Source of the DNA: Candidatus Bathyarchaeota archaeon
Lineage (GTDB): Archaea; Thermoproteota; Bathyarchaeia; Bathyarchaeales; Bathycorpusculaceae
NCBI GenBank assembly: GCA_963832745.1
Contig: CAWHVC010000002.1
Location: 320,001-384,000, forward strand
Direction: 5' to 3'
Length of the DNA stretch: 64,000 bases
Below, in pieces: positions 648-22,637 of the stretch. The position numbers and the translations under genes were made by a program. The notes beneath the pieces were generated by a model, which was given only the letters and a program-made list of their open reading frames with translations, did not search any database and was not told the DNA's origin. Each line of letters opens with the position of its first letter. Within the stretch, counting starts at the first letter, position 1.

Positions 648-1454
648 TCACAACTTTTTTCCACACCTTACACAATAAACCCCATCCGAACTTATCTCTG
701 CACCACAGTAAGGACAAGATTTTATTTGCCCAGTTGCCTGCATTGAGAAGCCTGTTGATGACGAAACAATCGGCGTCGGCGGTTCAGGCATTTTAAAGAA
801 TGCTTTTGCCAGAATCACCCAAGCAATATACTGTACTACACCTCCTGGGACAAAAACCAAGCTATAAGCGTCAACAGTTGCCGTATTAAATGACGCCCAA
901 AAAACAAAAACTATTCCAGCAACAATTTGCACTATTGCCCCTGTCAAAAACACTTTTGCGGCAGTTTTAAACAGGTTAACCTGCGATTTAGCAGCCAACA
1001 AGTTTAACGCCAGCACATCAAATACGATGTTTATTAAGCCTATGAATCCGAAAACTACTATAAACGGCGACATAAATGCAATCATGGCAGACGTAATTTG
1101 CTCTGTTGCTTGAAGGTTCGGGTACATGCTCATGAAGTTCCCGAAAAAGAACACAAACATGACTGACGTAGCCACAATGGCTGCTACAATGGCTATGATG
1201 ATGCCGTAAAGAACGTAATCGAATATGCGGTGTTCATTGTAAACTTTTGAGATGCCGTACATTGCAATAAAAAAGAGAATGAACCCTACAAGCGCTATTA
1301 CACTTATGACACCGCTTATTGAAGTGATGGCAGCGTTGAATATTGCAGAATTTGGGATGACATAGCGGGTAACCGTTAGTATGGATGATATTACGCCAAG
1401 CACAATTAATACGGCGCCAACACCACCTAACGTCTTGTTGGTTTGAAGGGACAT
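648..1454 (-). CDS. DUF996-like membrane protein with C-terminal zinc ribbon
   Basis: About five hydrophobic helices; N-terminal KTLGGVGAVL; C-terminal CPYCG...CVRCGKKL. Confidence 0.7.
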   Translation of the reverse strand: MSLQTNKTLGGVGAVLIVLGVISSILTVTRYVIPNSAIFNAAITSISGVISVIALVGFILFFIAMYGISKVYNEHRIFDYVLYGIIIAIVAAIVATSVMFVFFFGNFMSMYPNLQATEQITSAMIAFMSPFIVVFGFIGLINIVFDVLALNLLAAKSQVNLFKTAAKVFLTGAIVQIVAGIVFVFWASFNTATVDAYSLVFVPGGVVQYIAWVILAKAFFKMPEPPTPIVSSSTGFSMQATGQIKSCPYCGAEISSDGVYCVRCGKKL

Positions 1455-1522
1455 TTTTACCGTTGTCTATTATTCTTGGTTTAAGAGATAAATTTTTGCA
1501 AAAAAGGGTTGCCTTGCCTTAA

Positions 1523-1984
1523 TCATTGGTCTGAATTTTTCTCTTTTGACGCTTTTTTAGAGCAGCTGTCACATAAACCATAAACTTCAACTCTAACTAA
1601 CTCGACCAAAAATTTAGTGCCAACGATTCCATTTTTTATGTGCATTTTCAAATCTGGAGGCGAGAAATCCTGGATTTTCTGGCATTTTGTGCAAATCAAG
1701 TTCACGTGGGGCGTAGGGTTTGGGTCAAATCTTGTTTCGCCTTGAGGCATGTTTAGTTCTTGGATTAACTGGTTTTCTTTTAGTATGTGCAAGGTTTTGT
1801 AGACTGTTGACAGACTTACTGTTGGGTAGGTTTTTTTGACTTCTGTGTAAATTTTTTCTACGTTCGGGTGTTCTTTGTTGTTTAAGGCTATTTTGCAGAC
1901 TGCTATTCTTTGTGGGGTGGCTTTGTAGCCTTTGCTTCGGAGTGCTTGAATAATTATGGTGTCTTTTTTGTTGCCTTTCAGCAT
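1523..1984 (-). CDS. Fur/PerR-family transcriptional repressor
   Basis: KATPQR, HPNVE, SLSTVYKTL, HVNLICTKC and CDSC motifs; divergent from peroxiredoxin. Confidence 0.9.
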   Translation of the reverse strand: MLKGNKKDTIIIQALRSKGYKATPQRIAVCKIALNNKEHPNVEKIYTEVKKTYPTVSLSTVYKTLHILKENQLIQELNMPQGETRFDPNPTPHVNLICTKCQKIQDFSPPDLKMHIKNGIVGTKFLVELVRVEVYGLCDSCSKKASKEKNSDQ

Positions 1985-1996
1985 AGCAGTATTAGG

Positions 1997-2011
1997 TAAT
2001 AATAATTCTTA
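1997..2011. promoter_or_regulatory. Per/Fur-box-like operator between the Fur/PerR gene and peroxiredoxin
   Basis: TAATAATAATTCTTA matches 11 of 14 defined positions of the Bacillus Per box TTATAATnATTATAA; AT-rich context weakens the match. Confidence 0.4.
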
Positions 2012-2061
2012 AATAAGGTTCTGATTTACCTTTAACTGTAAATTTTTGATAGGTGAAATAA

Positions 2062-2721
2062 ATGGCAGAAATAAAAACGCAAGAGACAACAACTTTTCCA
2101 GTACTGGGACAAAAAGCTCCAGATTTTGAGGCATTAACAACCCAAGGTACCCTACGGCTTTCTGATTACAAAGGTACATGGCTTATTCTGTTCTCGCACC
2201 CAGCCGACTTCACGCCAGTGTGCACAACGGAATTCATGGCTTTTTCAGAGATATATGAAGACCTCAAAAAAAGAAACACAGAACTTTTAGGCTTAAGCGT
2301 TGACAGCGTCTCCTCACACATTGCCTGGATAAGAAACATAGAAGAAAAAATGGGCGTAAAAATCCCTTTCCCAATCATAGCAGACCTAAACAAAGAAGTA
2401 GCCAAAAAATTTGGCATGCTCCACCCAGAACAAAGCAAAACTGAAACCGTCCGCTGTGTCTTTATAATTGACCCCGAAAGCAAAATTCGTACAATGCTCT
2501 ACTACCCAATGTCAACTGGTCGAAACATGCAAGAAATCCTTCGCTTAGTTGATGCGTTGCAAACAACCGATAAATACAAAGTAGCGACGCCAGCCAACTG
2601 GAAACCAGGCGAACCCGTAGTAGTTCCACCACCCGTAACCATTGAACAAGTAGATGAACGCCTCAAAGAAGGCTACGAATGCAAAGACTGGTACCTCTGC
2701 AAGAAAAAACTGCCGAGTTGA
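2062..2721 (+). CDS. Peroxiredoxin (archaeal Prx6 type)
   Basis: [14 protein letters not shown] peroxidatic motif; TPANWKPG; C-terminal CKDWYLC. Confidence 0.95.
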
Positions 2722-2727
2722 GTTGTC

Positions 2728-2946
2728 ATGCCGTGTGTTTCTCCAGACGGAAAACCAACAGCAACCGGACTTAACACACTAAAAGCGCTAAAAGACGGCA
2801 GCCTGTCTCCTGAAGTAGTTTCAGGCAAGATAGGCCAACCCCTTTTTCGTGTTAGAAGTGGTCTTAGAGACCTCAAAAACGCTGGCTTTGTAGAAGAAGA
2901 CGGCGAAAAATTTTCCCTTACAGAAAAAGGCAAAGCAATAACATAG
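2728..2946 (+). CDS. Small winged-helix protein, probably co-transcribed with peroxiredoxin
   Basis: 72 aa; MPCVSPDG start; wing motif FSLTEKG; starts 6 bp after the prx stop. Confidence 0.7.
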   Translation: MPCVSPDGKPTATGLNTLKALKDGSLSPEVVSGKIGQPLFRVRSGLRDLKNAGFVEEDGEKFSLTEKGKAIT

Positions 2947-3052
2947 TAAAATGGAACGACTTGGGTTTGCATCAAAATGCAACACAAGGCTTGTTTAAGC
3001 TTAAAACAAAAACTTGGTGCTGTCTCGTTTTTCTTTTTTTGTTAGCTCTCTT

Positions 3053-4063
3053 TTAGATATTGCTGCCTATTCTCAGTTTATCCACTTCAGAGCGGTTAGG
3101 AATCTCAACCACTATTGACTTATCCAGTGCGTCTCTGCCATAGTTAACTTTAACTTTATCCAGTTTAGCATCCGAATAAAACGCCGTTAACTGAGCAGCT
3201 GTCTGAATAGCCTTCTTAGTCTTAGCACCCTGCAGAATAGTTATTGGCCCAACAATATCCGGTAACTCAAAATAGTACTCGCCTTTTGTTTTTCGAGATA
3301 CCAGAAACTTGTTTTCTGCCTCTTTACGTCCAACAATGAATTTGTTTTCGCCAAGTCGGAAATGTCTACCAAATCGTAACAGCACAGCGTCAGCGCCTGA
3401 AACGTTTTTCTTGTGCTCAAATAGGTCACGCAGTTTCTTGGAGTATTCCTCACAAGTTAACAGGCAACCACCAGCTGGGGAACAGTACGTTGTGATGCCA
3501 AATTCTTTGGCAAGTTGAAGTTGAGGTTTGCGTGAACGACCTGAAATTGCTAAAAGTTTGTTACGGTCAACTAAGCCCTTGCGTTCAGCTACTGTTTCAG
3601 GTAGTAGCTTAGCGGACAAGGGACGTAATAGTTTGCCTTTTAAGCCAGCTTCTTCCTCGATGGTTCTAAGAGCTGGACCATGCTGGGACATTGGTCTTTC
3701 GCCGAGCACTTCGCCAGTGAAAAGAAAGTCTGCGCCGATTTCTTTGGCGTATTTGACTGCTTGTTTTAGGATGAAAATTTTGCAGTCCACACAGGGGTTG
3801 ATGTTTTTGCCGTAGCCATGCTTGGGGCTTCTGAGCATACGGATGTAGTCTTTATCGACGGTGACCACTTTTAAGGGTATTTTTAGTTGTTTTATGGCTG
3901 CCTCTGCTTCACTTACGCCATCCTTTTTAGGAATGCCAAACGGTGTTTTCACGTTAAACGCGCTGACTTCTATGCCTTGATTTAGAATAATTTTTGTTGC
4001 AAGAATGCTGTCTAAGCCGCCCGAAAATAGTGAGATGGCTTTAACGTGAGTCATTTGTAGCAT
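3053..4063 (-). CDS. PP-loop tRNA thiouridylase-like protein (ThiI/MnmA-like) with C-terminal DUF814/NFACT-R-like region
   Basis: SGGLDS PP-loop; NPCVDC; TGEVLGERPMSQ; PAGGCLLT. Alternative start at 4054. Confidence 0.75.
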   Translation of the reverse strand: MLQMTHVKAISLFSGGLDSILATKIILNQGIEVSAFNVKTPFGIPKKDGVSEAEAAIKQLKIPLKVVTVDKDYIRMLRSPKHGYGKNINPCVDCKIFILKQAVKYAKEIGADFLFTGEVLGERPMSQHGPALRTIEEEAGLKGKLLRPLSAKLLPETVAERKGLVDRNKLLAISGRSRKPQLQLAKEFGITTYCSPAGGCLLTCEEYSKKLRDLFEHKKNVSGADAVLLRFGRHFRLGENKFIVGRKEAENKFLVSRKTKGEYYFELPDIVGPITILQGAKTKKAIQTAAQLTAFYSDAKLDKVKVNYGRDALDKSIVVEIPNRSEVDKLRIGSNI

Positions 4064-4279
4064 AGATTTCTTAGAGGAAGATAATAATGTACCGCTGAAA
4101 ACATAAACATCGTTACGACTGTAAACCGAATCTGCAAATCACGTTTGTTGACTTTTTTAACGTTTGCTTGTAATTACAGTAAAGGAGAGTTTGATATTTT
4201 TGTAAAACGGTATTTAGCCACAAAACATAAAAACAATTAAGTTCTATCGAAAACAAAAAGTGTTTAAGGACATGATCTC

Positions 4280-5623: not shown

Positions 5624-6125
5624 AGCCGCTTCAAAAAAACAGTTTAACCTGAGAAACCTGTCTGAAAAGGATGTGCCTGAAGTTTACAGGTTACTGGTTG
5701 CCAACAGGCCATATGTCGGTTTAAATTCACGTTACACATATTTTCTTTTAGCCAAAGATTTCTCAGAAACCTGTTTTGTTGCTGAGCACGAAAACAAAGT
5801 TGTAGCTTTTTCTTCTGGATATGTTCCCCCTCAAAGGAAGGACACTTTTTTTAACTGGGAAATAGTTGTCCAAAAAGAATACCGTGGTAACGGTCTTCAA
5901 AAACTTTTGTTGCTTCACCAAATAAAAATGGCTGATGCAAAATATTTTGAAGGCACGATTAACCCGTCAAATGACGTTTCCCGAAAGAATTACATTCAAC
6001 TTTCAGAATTGCTTAACGCAAAATATGAAGAGAAAATTTTTCTTACTGTTGAGGACTTTGAAAATGATGGTCATGAAACTGAAATTCTTTTCAGAATCGG
6101 TCCAATGGAAAAAAATTTTCATTAA
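5592..6125 (+). CDS. GNAT acetyltransferase, EctA (diaminobutyrate acetyltransferase)-like
   Basis: [49 protein letters not shown] resemble EctA; overlaps the ablA end. Alternative ATG at 5616. Confidence 0.75.
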
Positions 6126-6287
6126 ATCGGTTGTTAAAACAATTGATGTTTTGTCTCCAAGCCTGATAAGTCATTTGTCAAATGTTAAGCGATTCTCTGT
6201 CTTCTAAGCTTTTTCTAGAATAATTAATAAGCTTAAATGATAATACTGGCTGACAAAATACCGAGCATTTAGAGAGGAGGGTTTGGG

Positions 6288-7397
6288 TTGCCTGACATAA
6301 GTATCTTCATTCCGGTTTACAAGGAGTCAAGCGAATTAGGCAGCACCTTGAACAGCCTGCTTGCGCAAGATGTTGAAAAAGAAATTTTTGTAACCGTTGA
6401 CGAAGCAACCCCCCAGTTCATTGAAGAATCCAAACAGTATGACAGCAAAGTTACGTTCATCTTTAACAAAGAACGCACTGGAAAAGCAAACGCTTTAAAC
6501 GAAACCGTGAAATACTCAACGGGCAATGCCCTGCTTTTTCTAGATTCAGATGTTATGATTTCTGAAGATTCTGATTTTCTGAAAAAAATCATAATGGATC
6601 TGCAACATTCCGATGTTTTGGACATTAAAAAATGTGTAGTTAAGGGCAAATCTTTCCTCTCTAAAATGGCGTATTATGAATACTTCACTTTTAACGTGAG
6701 TTCATGGATTGCCGACCACTTAATGCATAAATGTCCTGCTGTGAACGGCGCCGCTTTTGCGATTAAACGTGGGGTCTTTGAAAAAATTGGTGGTTTCCAT
6801 AAAGTTGTCGCTGAAGACATCGACATAGCAACTCGAGCGTTTTTGGCTAACAGCAGTTTTTCTTACACGTCTGATGTTGAAGTAAAAAACGTTGTACACT
6901 CTGACTGGAAAAAATGGTTTAATCAACGCCGAAGATGGGCAATTGGTCAAGCGTTATGGCTTAAAACTTGGTGTGTGGCGTTAACTAAAAAATTTGCCAA
7001 GAAACCCCAAGTTTTCCTGCCCGGCTTATTCTTCTTGTACCCGTCAATAACCGTTTTCTTGTTAAGCGCTCTCCTGCCCAGCCTTTGGATGTATAACTCA
7101 ATGCTTGTCTTCTCAGTGTTCCTATCCGTAAGATTCAACATTATTTTGCCCGTCTTTTTGGTTTCTTTGGCGATGGCAGATGTACTTAAAATAGTTGCTA
7201 TTTCGCTGGCTAGCTTTGGAATCACTGCTGCCGTGTTTTACGGTTTTTCAAGAAAACTCGGATTTAGAGAGCTTAAAGTGCACGAGTTTTTCGCTTACTA
7301 CTTCTTTTACTCAACTATATGGATGCTAATCATCGTGATTGGGCATATTCAGGTGCTCTTGTTGGGTAAGAAAGCTGGGCCCGACTGGAAAACTTAA
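6288..7397 (+). CDS. Glycosyltransferase family 2 with C-terminal transmembrane helices
   Basis: FIPVYKE, GKANALN, LDSD (DxD), AED and QRRRW motifs. Confidence 0.9.
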   Translation: MPDISIFIPVYKESSELGSTLNSLLAQDVEKEIFVTVDEATPQFIEESKQYDSKVTFIFNKERTGKANALNETVKYSTGNALLFLDSDVMISEDSDFLKKIIMDLQHSDVLDIKKCVVKGKSFLSKMAYYEYFTFNVSSWIADHLMHKCPAVNGAAFAIKRGVFEKIGGFHKVVAEDIDIATRAFLANSSFSYTSDVEVKNVVHSDWKKWFNQRRRWAIGQALWLKTWCVALTKKFAKKPQVFLPGLFFLYPSITVFLLSALLPSLWMYNSMLVFSVFLSVRFNIILPVFLVSLAMADVLKIVAISLASFGITAAVFYGFSRKLGFRELKVHEFFAYYFFYSTIWMLIIVIGHIQVLLLGKKAGPDWKT

Positions 7398-16276: not shown

Positions 16277-17089
16277 CTAACCCATTTTTTTGGTGCCTGT
16301 GAAGTTAGAGGCTTTTTCGGCATTAAATCTTAGGCTGACTTTTTGCCCTGACGAGTATATCGAGTAGCTTGCTTGTCCAGTGCAGATTCTTCGCGCGCGT
16401 TCTCCGTCTTTGATTACAAAACCTGACAAGTCATTAACACCAAACTGTGTTAAGACAGGTGCTAAGGGTGTGCTGGGGCCAACCAAAACAACGTATGCCT
16501 GCTTTGAAAGTTCAAGAAAACGCGGTAGAGACTTGTCAATCAGCGAACCGCACGTGATAAGAACGTATTCACATTCTGGCAGTATATATTCAGCGGCGCT
16601 GTATGGGTAATCGTCTTCTTCAGGCCACCGAGATAGAACCGAAAGGTCACAAACAGGCCGAAACAACTGTTCAACATAAGGAAAATGCTCAATTATGCCC
16701 ACCTTTTTGTCTCGTATAACCTTCTGATAGGTGATAAAGGGGTCGTAGACCCGGTCTTCAGCGAATCGGCTGTTAGAAACGTTAACGCCATTTTTTCTGG
16801 CAACCTCTGCTGAATTATAGTAAGCGTTAATGGCTGCGTTGGCGATGCCTGCTTCAACGTAATTCCAAGATTTGATGCCTTCAGCAAGCTTCTTAAGCGG
16901 CATACCAACTGTTTTTTCAATTAATGTGGCGTGGCGTGTGTCGTCTGTTAGTACGCTGCCAAAACCGTGCCCTTCACCGGACCGTACATAAGCGTGGTAT
17001 GGACCGCAAACAATTTCGTCAGCGGTACACGATTCAGGTATTGCATCGATTAAAGTGTCATATAGTCGCCATTTACTTGAATTAAGCAT
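16277..17089 (-). CDS. DUF4213/DUF364 (putative heavy-metal chelation, Rossmann-like) protein
   Basis: SWNYVEAGIANAAINAYYN; ITCGSLIDKSLPRFLEL; LVGPSTP. Confidence 0.75.
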   Translation of the reverse strand: MLNSSKWRLYDTLIDAIPESCTADEIVCGPYHAYVRSGEGHGFGSVLTDDTRHATLIEKTVGMPLKKLAEGIKSWNYVEAGIANAAINAYYNSAEVARKNGVNVSNSRFAEDRVYDPFITYQKVIRDKKVGIIEHFPYVEQLFRPVCDLSVLSRWPEEDDYPYSAAEYILPECEYVLITCGSLIDKSLPRFLELSKQAYVVLVGPSTPLAPVLTQFGVNDLSGFVIKDGERARRICTGQASYSIYSSGQKVSLRFNAEKASNFTGTKKMG

Positions 17090-18110
17090 TTTTGATATCC
17101 TCCAAATCTTTCAGAACAATTACGTTGCCCCGGCGCAGGTCATTTCGAATATTCTGAAGTACGTTATCCATAAATTCGATTAATGTAAGATTTTTTTGCT
17201 CATCCTTAGAGGTTTCAATTACTTTGTGGATTCCCCCGTTTTTTATAACAATGCGTTTGTCAGCGTTCAACGCTAAAAGCGGGTCATGAGTGGAGATAAG
17301 CACGATTTTTTCTTTCTTTGCCAACAGACGGATAGCCTGTTTTCGGTCTACACCAGCGTTTTCAATTTCATCAATCAAAACAATCGGCGACGCGCTAATG
17401 TAGGCGGTGCCTGCAATCATCAAGGCTCTTGATTGACCTCCCGAGAGTTGAGTAACTTTGGTTGTCAAAGTAAAAGCTTCACCTGCCAACTCGTTTGCAC
17501 AGTCAAAGCATTGCTTGATTGTTTCTTGGGGATTTTTGCATAAGCGGCTTTTAGCGTGCATTTCTAGAAACTCGCCCACTGTTAGGTCCATAACGAAATT
17601 CATGTTTTGAGATAGTTGAGCGACAAGTTTGCTGCCCATTGAGAAGCGTTCTTCGTCGCTGAGCGTTTTTCCATTAATTAGTATTTGGCGTTTGGTTGGT
17701 GTGTCTTTTTGGGCGATGCATTCTATGTCGCTTAAGAGTTGGCTTTTTCCTGAACCTGTTGGGCCTACAATACTGATGACTTCTCCAGCGTTAATTGTCA
17801 GGGTGAGGTTTTCTGGGAAACCTATTTTGTTTTTTCCGCCAACAATTGTTATAGACTGCACTTTTTCGGTTTCTTCACAATTTTTTAGGATCGTTTCAAG
17901 GAATGACGTAAATTGTTCAACAAGTTCCATTCTTGAAAATCCAAACTCTAACAGTCGGTCTTCCTTAAGCTTTTCAAGCGCCGCTTCGATGGTTGTGTCT
18001 TTGGGCAAGTCTTGTAGGTTAAAATTGACTAAAAAATCGTTGGCAAGCGGATACAGCTCTACTATTTGATTGATTGTTTTACTTTCTATGAGCTGTTTAA
18101 TAGCCATCAT
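17082..18110 (-). CDS. ABC-type ATPase with extra N-terminal domain; no adjacent permease
   Basis: GPTGSGKS, LSGGQ, LIDEIENAG, STHDP. Confidence 0.8.
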   Translation of the reverse strand: MMAIKQLIESKTINQIVELYPLANDFLVNFNLQDLPKDTTIEAALEKLKEDRLLEFGFSRMELVEQFTSFLETILKNCEETEKVQSITIVGGKNKIGFPENLTLTINAGEVISIVGPTGSGKSQLLSDIECIAQKDTPTKRQILINGKTLSDEERFSMGSKLVAQLSQNMNFVMDLTVGEFLEMHAKSRLCKNPQETIKQCFDCANELAGEAFTLTTKVTQLSGGQSRALMIAGTAYISASPIVLIDEIENAGVDRKQAIRLLAKKEKIVLISTHDPLLALNADKRIVIKNGGIHKVIETSKDEQKNLTLIEFMDNVLQNIRNDLRRGNVIVLKDLEDIKNA

Positions 18111-18112
18111 TG

Positions 18113-18832
18113 CTATGCGAACTCTATTTTTTTAAGCATGCCCATTTGGTAGTTTTCGCCGATTCTTGTTTCCCCCGTGCAGTATGAACATATTGAAGCG
18201 GGAGTTGTGAAACGTAACCGCATGTTGCTTAGTGAGTTGACTTCATAAGCGTCAATGGCGTGTTTGCTTAGCAGAAAGGCGCCCTGCCCCGTTATTCCGT
18301 TTACAAATAGAATGCTGCCTTTGCTGTTAACTTGACGCACGTTAAAACTGAAAACTTCCCGTTCCGCTTGCGAAACAATATCACCCTTGGTAATTACTAC
18401 GACGTCGGCAAGTTTTAGCATAGGTCCTATTTTTCTTGGGGTTTGAATCCCTGATAGGTTATCTATAACACAGATGGCAAGCACACGGTTGATGTGTGGG
18501 GAGCAGCGGTTGCAGAGTCCTGCACTTTCACTTATGAGGATGTCTAAGCCTTCTTTTTGCCCCCAAGCTACGGCTTCTGCAATGTTGCTGATGAAGAAGT
18601 GATCGGGACACACTTTGCCTGAGAAACCTACTTGGACCGGGATTTTTGCTTCTTGATAGCGGATTTGGTCAAAACTAGTGAGGCAGTCGAATTTGACTAC
18701 GCCTATGCGGATGTTTTTTTCTTTTAGGCATGCGGCGAGTTGGAGGATGACTGAGGTTTTGCCTGAGGACGGGGGACCTGCGACTGTGATTAGTTTCATG
18801 GGTGGGTCTCCTTTTGGTTTGTGGGGTTCCAT
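18113..18832 (-). CDS. HypB/UreG/CobW-like (G3E) P-loop GTPase
   Basis: GPPSSGKT, CPDHF, ESAGLCNRC, TKGD, CSYC. Confidence 0.8.
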   Translation of the reverse strand: MEPHKPKGDPPMKLITVAGPPSSGKTSVILQLAACLKEKNIRIGVVKFDCLTSFDQIRYQEAKIPVQVGFSGKVCPDHFFISNIAEAVAWGQKEGLDILISESAGLCNRCSPHINRVLAICVIDNLSGIQTPRKIGPMLKLADVVVITKGDIVSQAEREVFSFNVRQVNSKGSILFVNGITGQGAFLLSKHAIDAYEVNSLSNMRLRFTTPASICSYCTGETRIGENYQMGMLKKIEFA

Positions 18833-19007: not shown

Positions 19008-19445
19008 TTAGATGCCTGGACCGGTCGGGTAACGTCCAAGCGCGTCCAGAATTTCCTCAGAAGTTGTCTTTTTGCCGATATTACGCACAAAATCTGAAGC
19101 AACCACAATGCCAACCAACTGGTTATTCTTCAAAACTGGCAGACGTCGTATCTTGTTTTTAGACATAACACGTGCGGCGTCCCTTAGTGAAGTGTCCGGA
19201 TCGACAGTTATGAGGGTTTTAGTCATCACTTCAGTAAGTTTCATGTCTGACGAAACACCCTTTGCCACGATTCGCCTTACTATGTCGCGTTCAGTGATTA
19301 TTCCAACTGGGTATCCTTTAATTACAACTGGCAGACAGCCTAAGCTTTTTTCAGCCATAAGCTTTGCAGCGTCAAAAACGCATTTGTCAGCGTCAATCGT
19401 AATAACATTCTTAGTCATGATGTCCTTAACTGATGGCATAAACAT
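19008..19445 (-). CDS. CBS-domain pair protein
   Basis: Two CBS repeats (VKDIMT...GIITERDI; EVMT...IRRLPV...GIVVASD). Confidence 0.9.
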   Translation of the reverse strand: MFMPSVKDIMTKNVITIDADKCVFDAAKLMAEKSLGCLPVVIKGYPVGIITERDIVRRIVAKGVSSDMKLTEVMTKTLITVDPDTSLRDAARVMSKNKIRRLPVLKNNQLVGIVVASDFVRNIGKKTTSEEILDALGRYPTGPGI

Positions 19446-19523: not shown

Positions 19524-20027
19524 TTATGCTGCTAACTCTCCTTTATCACTGGTAACCCCTGATTTTTTCTTTTGTAACAGTTTCCAGATGCTGTCACCGA
19601 TGAGAGCCCCAACAACGGTTAAAATAATGAAGGGTATCACGAAGTAGGTTGAAAGTGGTCCAATGATTAGTCTGGCGGCAAAGACTACTGAGAAGGCAGT
19701 AAATAGGCCTGAGGCAACTGCAAGTCGTATTCTGTGTATCTTAAGTAGCGTAATCTCAGTCTTTTGTGATGGCATGGGCAGCATCGTTTTGAAGCCTGTT
19801 TTGTCGATAATAATACGTACCACCAAAACAGTGGCAAGATATATAATTGGCCAGAAAATGCCCAAGTAATCAGTTGCTTGAATTACCAAGTAGAAAATGG
19901 GGACAATTAGCAGTGCCATAATTGCTATCAGGGCTATCATTAACGTTCGGCTAGGTTGAACATTAATTCTAAGAGAATCTGTTGGAAACCAGCCTCGAAT
20001 TCTATTTGCTAAACTTTTTCTACTCAA
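19524..20027 (-). CDS. Membrane protein (about 4 TM) with N-terminal RIRGWFPTD motif
   Basis: TTG at 20027 overlaps the upstream TGA (TTGA), giving MSRKSLANRIRGWFPTDS; the ORF track over-extends to 20213. Confidence 0.75.
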   Translation of the reverse strand: MSRKSLANRIRGWFPTDSLRINVQPSRTLMIALIAIMALLIVPIFYLVIQATDYLGIFWPIIYLATVLVVRIIIDKTGFKTMLPMPSQKTEITLLKIHRIRLAVASGLFTAFSVVFAARLIIGPLSTYFVIPFIILTVVGALIGDSIWKLLQKKKSGVTSDKGELAA

Positions 20028-20530
20028 TCTTCTATCTCTATGGTGGCTGCTGTCGTGAATTTTCTTTTTTGCATCCAGAATCCAACCAAGCCGCCCAAAG
20101 TCGGCATAACTATGAGCATTAAAACGAAAAGGCCCCAACTTCCAATAGCCGCAATTATTTGGTGACCAAACAGTATCATGCAGCCAACCACGCCGACTGC
20201 AAGGCCAAGCCAAGTCCCAACAGCAACATAGGCTACTTTTGGTCTTAAGTCTGGTCGGCGATTAAGCAGGTAAACCATTAGCATTAAAACAAAGCTGTAT
20301 GCAATTCCTGTAAGCCCATAACCCAATATTTTGCTGTCAATATATCCAAGCAGGAAAGGCACTACAACCAAAAGCACAAAAAGAGAGTAAGATATGGCTA
20401 AGCCAACATAGAAGCGACTGTTGAATTGAAAATTTTTTTCTTCAGCATTAAAACTATTGCTGGTTGGTATGGTGGGTTCTGTTGGAAACCAGCCTCTGAT
20501 GCGTGAACCTAAACTTTGCTTTCTTTTCAT
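20024..20530 (-). CDS. Membrane protein (about 4 TM) with N-terminal RIRGWFPTEP motif
   Basis: ATG preceded by GGAGG; four hydrophobic segments. Confidence 0.8.
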   Translation of the reverse strand: MKRKQSLGSRIRGWFPTEPTIPTSNSFNAEEKNFQFNSRFYVGLAISYSLFVLLVVVPFLLGYIDSKILGYGLTGIAYSFVLMLMVYLLNRRPDLRPKVAYVAVGTWLGLAVGVVGCMILFGHQIIAAIGSWGLFVLMLIVMPTLGGLVGFWMQKRKFTTAATIEIED

Positions 20531-20553
20531 GGAAGTAATCCTCCGTATAGTTT

Positions 20554-21696
20554 TTATTTGAAAAATGTTGGAGCTAAAAGTGGGTGATGGTCAGTGTTGT
20601 TAGTGTAAAGTTGGTAGGGATTGTTTCCTATTATGGAAGGGGCTTGTGGGAGGTGTACTTCTTCTATGGGATAATTGCTCCAAAAGTTGCCCATTTCGCC
20701 GTTGTCCCAAATATTGGATGAAAGGTTCTTTGGAACTAAAATGTATGAACAAGCATCGACAACTTGGTTAATATTATTGATGAAATTGTTGCCATAAAAG
20801 ATGTTGTTATTTGACCTAAATGGGCTAACTGCAAATTCAGTACATTGAGTAATATTGTTTCCACTAAAAAGATTTTTTGAACAGTCACGCATTTTAATTC
20901 CAATAGAATTGTTCACAAAATTGTTGTTGATTATTATGTTTCCTACGGTCGACATCATTCTGATTGCTCCGGTAAAGTTTATGATTTGGTTGTTAGAAAA
21001 ATTGTTGTAGCAGGCTGCAGATTCTATAGGTTCGATGTAAACGGCATAATGCCATCTTTCTAGTGCAGGGTTACCAATGTCAACTTTACCGTTTGGATTA
21101 TTAACAAAACAGTTTTCCGTTACATTTAGATGGCTGGCACGTAATAGCAATGAAATATTGGCCGATATGTGATTGTTCGAAATAGTGCAGCAGTCGCCTA
21201 ATACTTGAATTCCAGTATCCCAATCAACCATCTTTATATTTTTAACAGTTGAATTGGTTGAAAAAATCATAATCGCTTCATAGTTTCCTGGGCCGATTAA
21301 AAAATGTCCTGCGCCATCTAAAGTAATGTCGTCTTTTTGGATAAGAATGGAGTTGGAAATGTTTTGAGTAAACGTGTAAATTAAGCCGTCAACCTTTAGT
21401 ACATTTGAAGATGCATTAGGCCAAAGGCTCCCGTCAGGTTTAATGTAAATGTGGTCATGCAGGTTTAATCCCTCAGTAGTTGGAGGATTGTAGTCGGCAA
21501 ATGGCGGAACCGATTGGATTGGTGGAGCGCCAAAAAGGTAAATGTACGATACCGCAATTGAGGAGACAAGTAATGTTGTTGCGAGTATCAAAGTTATATG
21601 CGAGCGTATGTTTATTGCGCCAATTCTTCTAGTCTGAAAAGGCTCTTTAGGAAGCCAACCCCTAAAAATGTTTAGTGCTTTCTTCTTTAACTCCAA
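20554..21696 (-). CDS. Single-TM protein with extracellular NosD/right-handed beta-helix domain and N-terminal FRGWLPKEP motif
   Basis: One TM near aa 33-55; Asn-rich NNxFxxN repeats; WDNG..GNFWSNY and D.HPL C-terminal motifs. Confidence 0.8.
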   Translation of the reverse strand: MELKKKALNIFRGWLPKEPFQTRRIGAINIRSHITLILATTLLVSSIAVSYIYLFGAPPIQSVPPFADYNPPTTEGLNLHDHIYIKPDGSLWPNASSNVLKVDGLIYTFTQNISNSILIQKDDITLDGAGHFLIGPGNYEAIMIFSTNSTVKNIKMVDWDTGIQVLGDCCTISNNHISANISLLLRASHLNVTENCFVNNPNGKVDIGNPALERWHYAVYIEPIESAACYNNFSNNQIINFTGAIRMMSTVGNIIINNNFVNNSIGIKMRDCSKNLFSGNNITQCTEFAVSPFRSNNNIFYGNNFINNINQVVDACSYILVPKNLSSNIWDNGEMGNFWSNYPIEEVHLPQAPSIIGNNPYQLYTNNTDHHPLLAPTFFK

Positions 21697-22029
21697 TTAC
21701 CGCAACCTCACAGGTTTCAATTGTTTTCTGTATCGCCAGTAAAGCAGCAAATTAACCGTCAACAATGAGGGTAGGAAGATGCTGAAGAAAATGAGGGTTG
21801 ATTCGGCGGTGACCTGATGGTTGTAGTGGGGTTGAATAAGCAATGCATTGATGCCTAACGAAGTAGACACTATAATAACGTTGGCTATTGAACTGTGTTT
21901 GTACAGTTTCTTGTCCAATTCTGCCTTCGTTTTAGGTGCAGGCGAAGTGTTAACTACACAGTTTTTAGTAAAAGGTTCCTGTGGGAACCAGCCTTTGAAT
22001 AATTTGTCTAAGTCTTTTTTGTTTATCAT
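21697..22029 (-). CDS. Small 2-TM membrane protein with N-terminal FKGWFPQEP motif
   Basis: ATG overlaps the upstream TGA (ATGA); two hydrophobic helices; basic C-terminal tail. Confidence 0.8.
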   Translation of the reverse strand: MINKKDLDKLFKGWFPQEPFTKNCVVNTSPAPKTKAELDKKLYKHSSIANVIIVSTSLGINALLIQPHYNHQVTAESTLIFFSIFLPSLLTVNLLLYWRYRKQLKPVRLR

Positions 22030-22508
22030 AGTTTCAACTCCGGGATTAATTGGGAAAAAATCGTGTGTGCCAACTTGGCGGGGTGTTGTTTTTCCATGTC
22101 TTCAATTTCGATGCCTCTTTCGCGGGCGATGTCGATTAGGTATTGGCGTGTTTGGTTTAGGAATGCTGTGTCGGTTATTTCTTCGGGGTTGTCGTGCCAG
22201 TACCAGACTTTGATGCCGTGGCTGGTGGTGTAGGTGATTATGGCTTTGCGTTTTAGGGCTGGGTGGTAGCCGAGGAGGATGGCTTGTTTGGCGTATAGGT
22301 GTGTGATTTGGAGGTCGTTTGTTTGGGCTACGTCGAGCAAGGTTGTGGAGAGTTTGGCTTCGGCTTGGAGTTTGGTTTGGTTGATGAATTGGCGTGTGGT
22401 TTTTAGTTTTTCTGCTATGGCGTTTATGGTGAGGCCATTGCTGAGTAGGTGCCAGATGGTTTTTTGTTGTTGGCTTAGGGGCGATGAGAGCGCGCATGTG
22501 TTTACCAT
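22026..22508 (-). CDS. HTH regulator (LuxR/sigma70 region 4-like N-terminus) with uncharacterised C-terminal domain
   Basis: LSQQQKTIWHLLSNGLTINAIAEKLKTTRQFINQ HTH; first gene of the GWxP operon. Confidence 0.75.
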   Translation of the reverse strand: MVNTCALSSPLSQQQKTIWHLLSNGLTINAIAEKLKTTRQFINQTKLQAEAKLSTTLLDVAQTNDLQITHLYAKQAILLGYHPALKRKAIITYTTSHGIKVWYWHDNPEEITDTAFLNQTRQYLIDIARERGIEIEDMEKQHPAKLAHTIFSQLIPELKL

Positions 22509-22512
22509 TGTT

Positions 22513-22550
22513 AATACTTCACCGTAAATAATATGATGTTTACAAGTATT
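22513..22550. promoter_or_regulatory. Interrupted inverted repeat, candidate autoregulatory operator
   Basis: AATACTT-cacc-GTAAA-N10-TTTAC-AAGTATT between the HTH start codon and a TATA-like element. Confidence 0.45.
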
Positions 22551-22637
22551 TATTTTTAACTAAAAAACCAGCCAAACCCAAACATCTCAATCCAAAAATC
22601 GTATTAACCGCTTAACCGTCACACTATCAGGCGACAA

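Follow-up and report, generated by a model that had tools for sequence, protein, structure and literature searches.

The window analysed here, a stretch of 64,000 nucleotides from a Candidatus Bathyarchaeota genome (assembly GCA_963832745.1, contig CAWHVC010000002.1, positions 320,001 to 384,000), carries five tightly coupled minus-strand genes, which encode a helix-turn-helix (HTH) protein of 160 residues and, behind it, four membrane proteins that we call partners 1 to 4 (Table 1). The partners have hardly anything in common except a peptide of about 20 residues at their N-termini, and in what follows we develop the view, towards which the evidence inclines us, that this peptide is a docking motif for the co-encoded HTH protein.

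Operon and shared peptide

The open reading frames (ORFs) and all four junctions of the operon read as the original prediction had described them. The HTH gene and partner 1 share an ATGA at 22026-22029; the TAA of partner 1 abuts the TTG of partner 2 at 21696/21697; the 23-nucleotide gap between partners 2 and 3 contains a GGAGG ahead of the ATG at 20530; and partners 3 and 4 overlap in a TTGA at 20024-20027.

Table 1. Genes, peptide-coding segments and candidate control elements of the operon (window coordinates)
Feature	Position	Strand	Remarks
TATA-like box, A/T-rich	22547..22559	-	Upstream of the HTH gene; putative promoter element, from comparison with homologous loci
Candidate operator	22524..22543	.	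Palindromic, GTAAAC-N8-(A)TTTAC; 16 nucleotides upstream of the HTH start codon
HTH regulator	22026..22508	-	160 residues; N-terminal HTH, long helix, C-terminal beta4-alpha2 domain (predicted)
Partner 1	21697..22029	-	110 residues, 2 transmembrane segments; start overlaps HTH stop (ATGA)
Partner 1 peptide	21973..22029	-	Codons 1-19, MINKKDLDKLFKGWFPQEP; peptide profile E 1.1e-13
Partner 2 (gene 3)	20554..21696	-	380 residues, TTG start; 1 transmembrane segment and NosD-type right-handed beta-helix
Partner 2 peptide	21640..21696	-	Codons 1-19, MELKKKALNIFRGWLPKEP; peptide profile E 4.0e-9
Partner 3 (gene 4)	20024..20530	-	168 residues, 4 transmembrane segments
Partner 3 peptide	20474..20530	-	Codons 1-19, MKRKQSLGSRIRGWFPTEP; peptide profile E 9.2e-14
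Partner 4 (gene 5)	19524..20027	-	167 residues, TTG start overlapping partner 3 stop; 4 transmembrane segments
Partner 4 peptide	19974..20027	-	Codons 1-18, MSRKSLANRIRGWFPTDS; peptide profile E 3.1e-7

The sole part common to the four partners is an N-terminal M-x(10-11)-[RK]-G-W-[FL]-P-x-[ED], and the ORF translations bear out each of the four N-termini that had been quoted for them. The motif begins 11-12 residues past Met1, within a Lys/Arg-rich stretch that precedes the first transmembrane (TM) segment, and the first hydrophobic segment begins a further 15-35 residues on. The N-terminal segment ahead of the first TM, which is predicted to be cytoplasmic, has only 23-47 residues; because this basic N-terminus precedes the first TM, the peptide itself is also predicted to face the cytoplasm. 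The spacing is nearly constant beyond the window as well: the motif stands 10-13 residues from Met1 in 29 of 30 regular-expression matches, the remaining one being an IlvC-like false positive.

The bodies behind the peptide do differ as claimed. A Kyte-Doolittle scan assigns 2, 1, 4 and 4 TM segments to partners 1 to 4, respectively. Only partner 2 carries the NosD-type parallel beta-helix (PF05048, 53.9 bits against a cut-off of 23.6; PF13229, 36.3 against 25.9), and, scoring 38.2 bits where TIGR04247 demands 300, it falls well short of the full-length NosD maturation proteins. The BLASTP alignment of partners 3 and 4 is confined to the first 15 residues (E 3e-6), and once the first 25 residues are removed no pair of window partners matches at E <= 0.01. 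A partner 1 orthologue that is 43% identical is found in locus L031, to which we return below.

A profile of the peptide (A2), made from 23 N-terminal 40-mers, has M1, G13, W14 and P16 as invariants. The codons of these 23 sequences are far less constant: the invariant Gly is written GGC 9, GGT 6, GGA 7 and GGG 1 times, the invariant Pro CCA 10, CCT 10, CCC 2 and CCG 1 times, the hydrophobic residue after the Trp uses eight codons (TTC, TTT, CTT, CTC, CTA, TTA, ATT and GTT), and the synonymous positions of the Glu codons also vary freely. Since the Gly and Pro codons vary synonymously, selection acts on the peptide and not on the nucleic acid, and conservation of the motif at the level of DNA or RNA was discarded as an explanation on the same ground.

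The peptide occurs with one family of HTH genes

The genome from which the window comes (G000; 3.02 Mb in 5 contigs) contains four HTH paralogues. The pattern GW[FLCIMVYW]P occurs in it at 13 sites whose frames have 60 or more residues left, and the seven sites that are N-terminal all fall in operons headed by one of the four paralogues: four are those of the window and three belong to two ATP-binding cassette (ABC) transporter operons on contig C4. Profile scans of five whole genomes that bear the HTH family gave a similar picture. All 20 matches below E 1e-6 (4 in G000, 11 in G318, 3 in G077 and 1 each in G176 and G272) lie directly downstream of an HTH homologue, and no match below that value lies away from one in these five genomes; three further own-genome matches at E ~0.03 are within the two C4 operons. 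Five related genomes (94-100% complete) with no HTH match yielded nothing better than E 0.2. The profile was built from these same loci, and the informative part is therefore the lack of matches elsewhere. Peptide and HTH gene thus occur together in 5/5 genomes and are both absent in 5/5, the tie between motif and HTH family that the original prediction had expected, and in the scanned genomes there is none of the scatter away from HTH genes that it had named as the mark of an unrelated motif. A chance origin of the shared peptide was ruled out by the genome-wide pattern and profile scans together.

Within the phylum, an HTH homologue (E <= 0.001) is present in 22 of 401 sampled genomes. The genes downstream of the close homologues start with the same peptide, and in 46 of 69 HTH rows the motif gene starts within -26 to +6 nucleotides of the HTH stop codon, mostly by an ATGA overlap; L031 has 10 motif genes in tandem. 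A profile scan of genome contigs (alignment A4) brought together 40 loci, nearly all from metagenome-assembled genomes of Bathyarchaeia/Thermoproteota, the exceptions being one labelled Nanoarchaeia and one titled 'uncultured archaeon'.

Genes for an ABC ATPase and an ABC-2-type permease sit between the HTH and motif genes, or beside them, in many of these operons (the C4 operons at 755-4251 and 82374-89966; L034, L037, L078, L081, L087 and L088), and a link of the HTH operons to export or envelope functions seems likely from this. The fourth HTH operon of the own genome (contig C1, 599474-604011) is partly decayed: its motif protein is frameshifted and has GRLPQDP in place of GWLPQDP, and a 175-residue membrane protein known from the C4 operons is split into two ORFs. 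Contig C2 has in addition an HTH-like fragment at 67426-67614 (profile E 3e-5, positions 4-66) with an in-frame TAG.

The HTH regulator

In Pfam and NCBIfam the HTH protein has sub-threshold matches only, with GerE and HTH_7 at E ~0.01-0.02. It misses the cut-off of the Tfx model TIGR00721 (19.2 bits against 60.25, the match being limited to residues 10-52) and that of the sigma region 2 + 4 model TIGR02937 (14.3 against 42.9), of which only the region-4 part matches (residues 10-55), and it has no match to TFX_C (PF14601) at E <= 1. The family is not a large one: out of 1.84 billion representative proteins, a profile built on 25 homologues retrieved 1171 at E <= 1e-3, 210 at E <= 1e-10 and 40 at E <= 1e-30. 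Its neighbours in the Atlas are Bathyarchaeota hypothetical proteins (0.96-0.97), with Tfx/TFX_C clusters at only 0.86-0.89. A role in a defence system was considered and rejected, as PADLOC gave sub-threshold HTH matches to CARF-HTH models (E 0.003-0.006) and none for the partners.

An AlphaFold2 model of the regulator (predicted local distance difference test, pLDDT, 91.2; predicted template-modelling score 0.83) places the HTH helices at 13-23, 28-34 and, as a long helix, 39-63, four strands within 67-103 and two more helices at 114-130 and 143-154. The HTH part superposes on EnfR (8hno_A) with Z 9.6 and a root-mean-square deviation of 0.7 A over 52 residues at 33% identity; it also resembles sigma-70 region 4 and LuxR-type domains (Z 7-9), and EnfR was returned by a profile search of Protein Data Bank (PDB) sequences too (E 2.4e-5). 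When the whole model was searched against a large structure set (VIA wide) only residues 1-64 were matched, and Foldseek against the PDB gave no row at E <= 0.001. The C-terminal domain modelled alone (pLDDT 90.8) is a beta4-alpha2 arrangement that reached a best Z of 3.5, with none at 5 or above among 48,161 chains (VIA wide), and no Foldseek row at E <= 0.001 (the top row being PipX at E 0.25); the domain is one with no structural match in these searches, though the absence of a match is no proof of a new fold. From these models, the protein appears to be a small Tfx/EnfR-like transcription regulator with a sigma-70-region-4-like HTH that would be expected to bind DNA.

The coding strand of the HTH gene is strongly A+C-rich (A 0.37, C 0.35). 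In contrast to those of the four downstream genes, its third codon positions have 2% T and 9% G; the paralogues show the bias in a weaker form. As a result of this bias the gene has long stop-free alternative frames, such as a 131-residue ORF at 22102-22497.

Joint presence and loss of cysteines

Most members of the HTH family have C-x2-C-x5-7-C at the start of the first C-terminal helix. These are the family's only conserved Cys columns (filled in 35, 39 and 38 of 44 aligned sequences); a His near the triad is present in only 26 of the 44, so that no conserved fourth intramolecular ligand is visible. The window regulator, by comparison, has no Cys from residue 71 onward and the window peptides have none either, as had been noted originally.

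The membrane proteins encoded downstream of triad-bearing regulators begin, for example, with MGxRKRFRDFRDWCPQPP or ..DWCRIPPEP, and there are often two to four such W-C genes at a locus. When W-C-P-Q-P-P is aligned with W-F-P-Q-E-P, the Cys falls exactly at the position of the window's Phe or Leu. Among the 49 HTH rows with the triad, a [W/F/R]-C partner is present in 42 and lacking in 5, the other 2 being truncated by the end of a contig. Among the 15 rows that lack the triad, a GW[FLIV]P partner is seen in 13, while 1 is without a partner in the retrieved DNA and 1 has a decayed one. A maximum-likelihood tree of 64 HTH proteins (62 different), from which L098 and all rows of fewer than 140 residues or with an E value over 1e-40 were left out, places the loss of the triad and the loss of the partner Cys as one change each, on the same branch (approximate likelihood-ratio test, SH-aLRT, 98). 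The co-variation that had been predicted is thus seen: regulators with the triad have W-C-P partners, and the clade of the window lacks both. At the level of sequence this suggests that the peptide and the regulator's C-terminal domain are functionally linked in a direct way.

Some loci stand a little apart from this pattern. L054-L057 and L099 form a divergent, long-branch HTH subfamily that keeps the Cys triad and an overlapping downstream membrane protein; a metagenome scan with this subfamily (A6) found one locus, L099, whose partner has no W-C motif. The L048 partner, of an FCRIPP group, contains a bacterial PH domain (bPH_5, 6e-20). In L098 the HTH frame at 6001-6459 looks broken, since the ORF as called lacks the triad and the length of the match is odd, and four WCPQP-type genes still follow it. 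Among representative members of the family, P0013 and P0111 are missing at least one of the three Cys, and P0020, which resembles the window's clade, is missing them all.

A candidate operator

The palindrome GTAAAY-N8-RTTTAC can be read in 13 of 15 upstream regions of the Cys-less HTH genes, L036 having only a half-site (TAAAT) and L042 being unclear. It lies ~15-30 nucleotides ahead of the HTH start codon across these loci and, in homologous loci, a TTAAATA-like box stands 3-5 nucleotides before it. A relaxed version of the pattern has 11 sites in the own genome, no more than in shuffled sequences (7-22); the sites with N8 spacing number 4, and these coincide exactly with the four HTH promoters. 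At the equivalent place, the relatives with the Cys triad show GTAAG-N~8-CTTAC. Archaeal repressors usually act at sites between the TATA box and the start codon, and the palindromic form of this candidate operator implies a dimeric, repressor-type regulator.

Prediction of the complex

Docking of the peptide on the HTH protein, which the original prediction had proposed for complex modelling, obtained some support from an ESMFold2-based prediction with the HTH and peptide alignments as input, though a weak one. The median score was 0.48 (runs 0.48, 0.03 and 0.60), above the best of three controls at 0.00. In the calibration, 58 of 80 solved complexes passed, as did 2 of 110 mismatched pairs; a score of 0.60 or below was found in only 7 of the 80 solved complexes and in both passing mismatches. 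These counts hold only roughly here since the alignments were our own. The runs agree in at least 68% of contacts, the partner pLDDT is 40-48 and no interface was returned.

Proposed mechanism and its alternatives

On balance we lean towards the view that the peptide is a docking motif, on the cytoplasmic side, for a repressor of its own operon, which the membrane partners would capture. The regulator, probably as a dimer, would bind GTAAAY-N8-RTTTAC and, as this palindrome stands between the TATA-like box and the regulator's own start codon, its binding would be expected to repress the operon. The motif of the membrane proteins, in the form of ~10 basic or amphipathic residues followed by [RK]-G-W-[FL]-P-x-[ED]-P, would dock on the regulator, most likely on its C-terminal beta4-alpha2 domain, and the amount or state of the envelope proteins, their variable bodies perhaps acting as sensors, would then set how much regulator is free for DNA. 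In principle, this would be a repressor sequestered at the membrane by the products of its own operon, as in Mlc/PtsG or, functionally, as with anti-sigma factors. We favour a docking motif because it can account for the exclusive linkage, the translational coupling and the fixed register of one peptide on unrelated bodies, and equally for a DNA-binding regulator with an operator, a C-terminal domain that is otherwise unexplained and the joint loss of Cys. The modular scheme first put forward for the window is supported in part, namely in a peptide tied to the HTH family and predicted to be cytoplasmic, in unrelated bodies and in Cys co-variation, whereas docking and sensing themselves are proposals; its comparison with extracytoplasmic-function (ECF) sigma factors holds only as an analogy.

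The main competitor, which we consider clearly less probable and yet one to be taken seriously, is that the genes form a regulon and nothing else. The HTH protein would be an autoregulating repressor, and the peptide would serve an insertion, sorting or processing machinery encoded elsewhere, or would be an interfacial amphipathic anchor, a variant in which the acylatable Cys of the relatives could be replaced here by Phe or Leu. The palindrome at the HTH promoters would account for the linkage with no contact between the proteins, the change of Cys to Phe, Leu, Ile or Val preserves hydrophobicity, a conserved N-terminal stretch ahead of unrelated bodies is what targeting signals typically look like, and the weak complex prediction (0.48; best control 0.00) fits as well. 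However, a general sorting signal should also be met elsewhere, and none was seen away from HTH genes in the five scanned genomes nor in the five relatives that have no HTH match; the 15-35 polar residues between the motif and the first TM are unlike the Sec, Tat and class III signal peptides as generally known; and the joint Cys loss of regulator and partners on one branch is left unexplained. The HTH-family protein might instead be an adaptor or chaperone that binds the peptides mainly in order to escort or assemble membrane proteins as they are made, or to fix the transcribed locus to the membrane. The association and the Cys co-variation fit this equally, and it suits the large number of clients that an HTH gene can have (as many as 10 in L031) and the translational coupling of that gene to its first client, but we judge it improbable: at the N-terminus there is a DNA-binding HTH of canonical type, with the repressor EnfR as its closest match, and the conserved palindrome at the HTH promoters points to a DNA-binding regulator. 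Hardly credible, finally, is that the 5' ends of the partner genes are conserved as DNA or RNA, for instance as an internal operator or a translational-coupling structure, of which the peptide is a by-product. While the motif does keep a fixed distance from the start codon and genes 4 and 5 are similar in DNA too across it, the synonymous variation of the Gly, Pro and Glu codons in the 23 sequences and the spread of the post-Trp residue over eight codons speak for the peptide, and the motif DNA is unlike the promoter palindrome.

Several observations nevertheless weigh against a docking motif. Two C4 operons place the motif gene ~2.3 kb downstream of the HTH gene, and in L032 (motif gene 1897-2440, plus strand) and L036 (contig start), from two genomes of the window's genus, the motif gene is convergent with it. 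Near-duplicate loci (L050 = L097, L072 = L095) mean that the locus counts overstate the independent cases. The Cys co-variation is a single evolutionary event, and is therefore suggestive and beyond a statistical test; moreover, the triad columns were kept in the alignment from which the tree was built. At the triad loci L051, L054-L057 and L099 the downstream membrane proteins begin with ...VIRP(P)... and have no N-terminal Cys, so that the presence of the triad is not strictly bound to that of a Cys in the partner. As many as 10 partners for one regulator gene are odd for a simple stoichiometric sequestration, and a repressor titrated by the products of its own operon would create a positive feedback with no visible limit. 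Last, the complex prediction gives weak support, one of its three runs being at 0.03 and the fold of the partner being uncertain.

The cysteines allow an extension of the docking motif, which we hold to be rather doubtful. The three Cys of the regulator and the single invariant Cys of the W-C-P peptide might, in the ancestral version of the system, which is also the commonest today, together make up one intermolecular metal or iron-sulfur (Fe-S) site, such that the regulator could be held on the membrane proteins by a cofactor and released by metal or redox state. The clade of the window would then be a derivative with a hydrophobic contact (peptide Cys to Phe/Leu; regulator Cys to Ile/Thr/Thr).

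How archaea pass signals from the envelope to transcription is poorly understood. In loci of this type a small Tfx-like regulator goes with a cytoplasmic tag of ~20 residues, portable enough to be placed on any membrane protein and, if the tag does dock the regulator, it would be a simple, modular way of coupling envelope proteins to gene expression. The system lends itself to testing with simple reagents (a single small protein, synthetic peptides and an operator of 20 bp), which matters because Bathyarchaeia are uncultured.

Neighbouring genes

Elsewhere in the window, downstream of a CBS-domain gene at 19008-19445, three more tightly packed minus-strand genes occupy 16277-18832. Their products are a 270-residue protein, a 342-residue protein with ABC-ATPase-like motifs and a 239-residue P-loop protein.

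Comparison with known systems

The pairing of such a regulator with such a peptide was not found described in the article texts searched on DUF1673, Tfx, arCOG06827 and Bathyarchaeota regulators. The likeness to ECF sigma/anti-sigma pairs that had been suggested for the operon is real in its layout: the gene of an HTH protein of the region-4 type is transcribed together with, and coupled in translation to, that of a membrane protein with variable extracytoplasmic parts, and it is the cytoplasmic N-terminus of this membrane protein that is proposed to sequester the HTH protein. Among the structural neighbours of the HTH are many sigma region 4 domains that were solved with their anti-sigma factors. 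Archaea, however, do not use sigma factors and have no sigma/anti-sigma systems. The regulator has a region-4-like HTH alone, with no sigma region 2, none of the four partners has a Pfam or NCBIfam match to an anti-sigma family at E <= 1, and the proposed docking element is a linear motif of ~20 residues, not a helical anti-sigma domain; the missing region 2 and anti-sigma domain put the system outside the sigma/anti-sigma families. The up to 10 partners per regulator gene and the palindromic operator set it further apart from ECF pairs.

A precedent for the proposed principle is Mlc-PtsG of E. coli, in which an operon repressor is reportedly captured at the membrane by the membrane protein that it controls. 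The proteins are unrelated to those described here. Mlc belongs to the ROK family and its binding target is a folded EIIB domain, whereas here it is a short N-terminal motif, common to unrelated proteins, that would do the capturing.

The resemblance to the DUF1673 proteins of Methanosarcina and their GWCP motif, noted in the original prediction, has a basis in print, since PMC4158269 has a table entry 'MGWCP motif, DUF1673'; the passages on DUF1673 in that paper and in PMC4390880 state neither a function nor a link to a regulator. In both cases the proteins are archaeal membrane proteins, expanded in number and evolving fast, that bear a motif of the (M)GWCP type at the N-terminus. The window partners themselves score below the family: none of the four matches DUF1673 (PF07895, cut-off 30.4 bits) at E <= 1, and the best value in the own genome, 11.2 bits, is located elsewhere, with nothing over the cut-off; only one control genome has PF07895 above it. 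The L096 partner (...RKRMGWCPKT...) shows a weak alignment to Pfam positions 5-16 of DUF1673 (E 0.23, below the cut-off). As a homology query, residues 1-45 of this partner returned the L096 partner alone, and an Atlas search with its N-terminus returned nothing at 0.9 or above. The window peptides have GW[FL]P with no Cys, whereas other Bathyarchaeia relatives have WCP or GWCP. Judged by sequence, the window motif is the Cys-less counterpart of the DUF1673 'MGWCP motif', and the operon may offer a first functional lead for the expansion of these proteins in Methanosarcina.

Among known regulators, those of the Tfx family come closest. Like Tfx and EnfR, it is a small archaeal protein with an N-terminal sigma-70-region-4-like HTH, a long helix and a C-terminal alpha+beta domain. 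EnfR (TON_1525) of Thermococcus onnurineus (PDB 8HNO/8HNP) is described as a Tfx-family dimeric repressor on a 36-bp pseudo-palindrome (PMC10570040). The order of its C-terminal domain is given there as beta-alpha-alpha-beta-beta (PMC10570040), against beta-beta-beta-beta-alpha-alpha here, and over the whole chain the TM-score to Tfx/EnfR is only 0.31-0.37; the regulator is also below the TIGR00721 cut-off and lacks TFX_C, as noted above. Because the C-terminal domain of EnfR is unlike an effector-binding domain, its authors suspect an anti-repressor (PMC10570040). No partner peptide is known for Tfx or EnfR, in contrast to the one proposed here and, if that peptide docks its regulator, it would be a concrete candidate for the 'missing anti-repressor' of the Tfx family.

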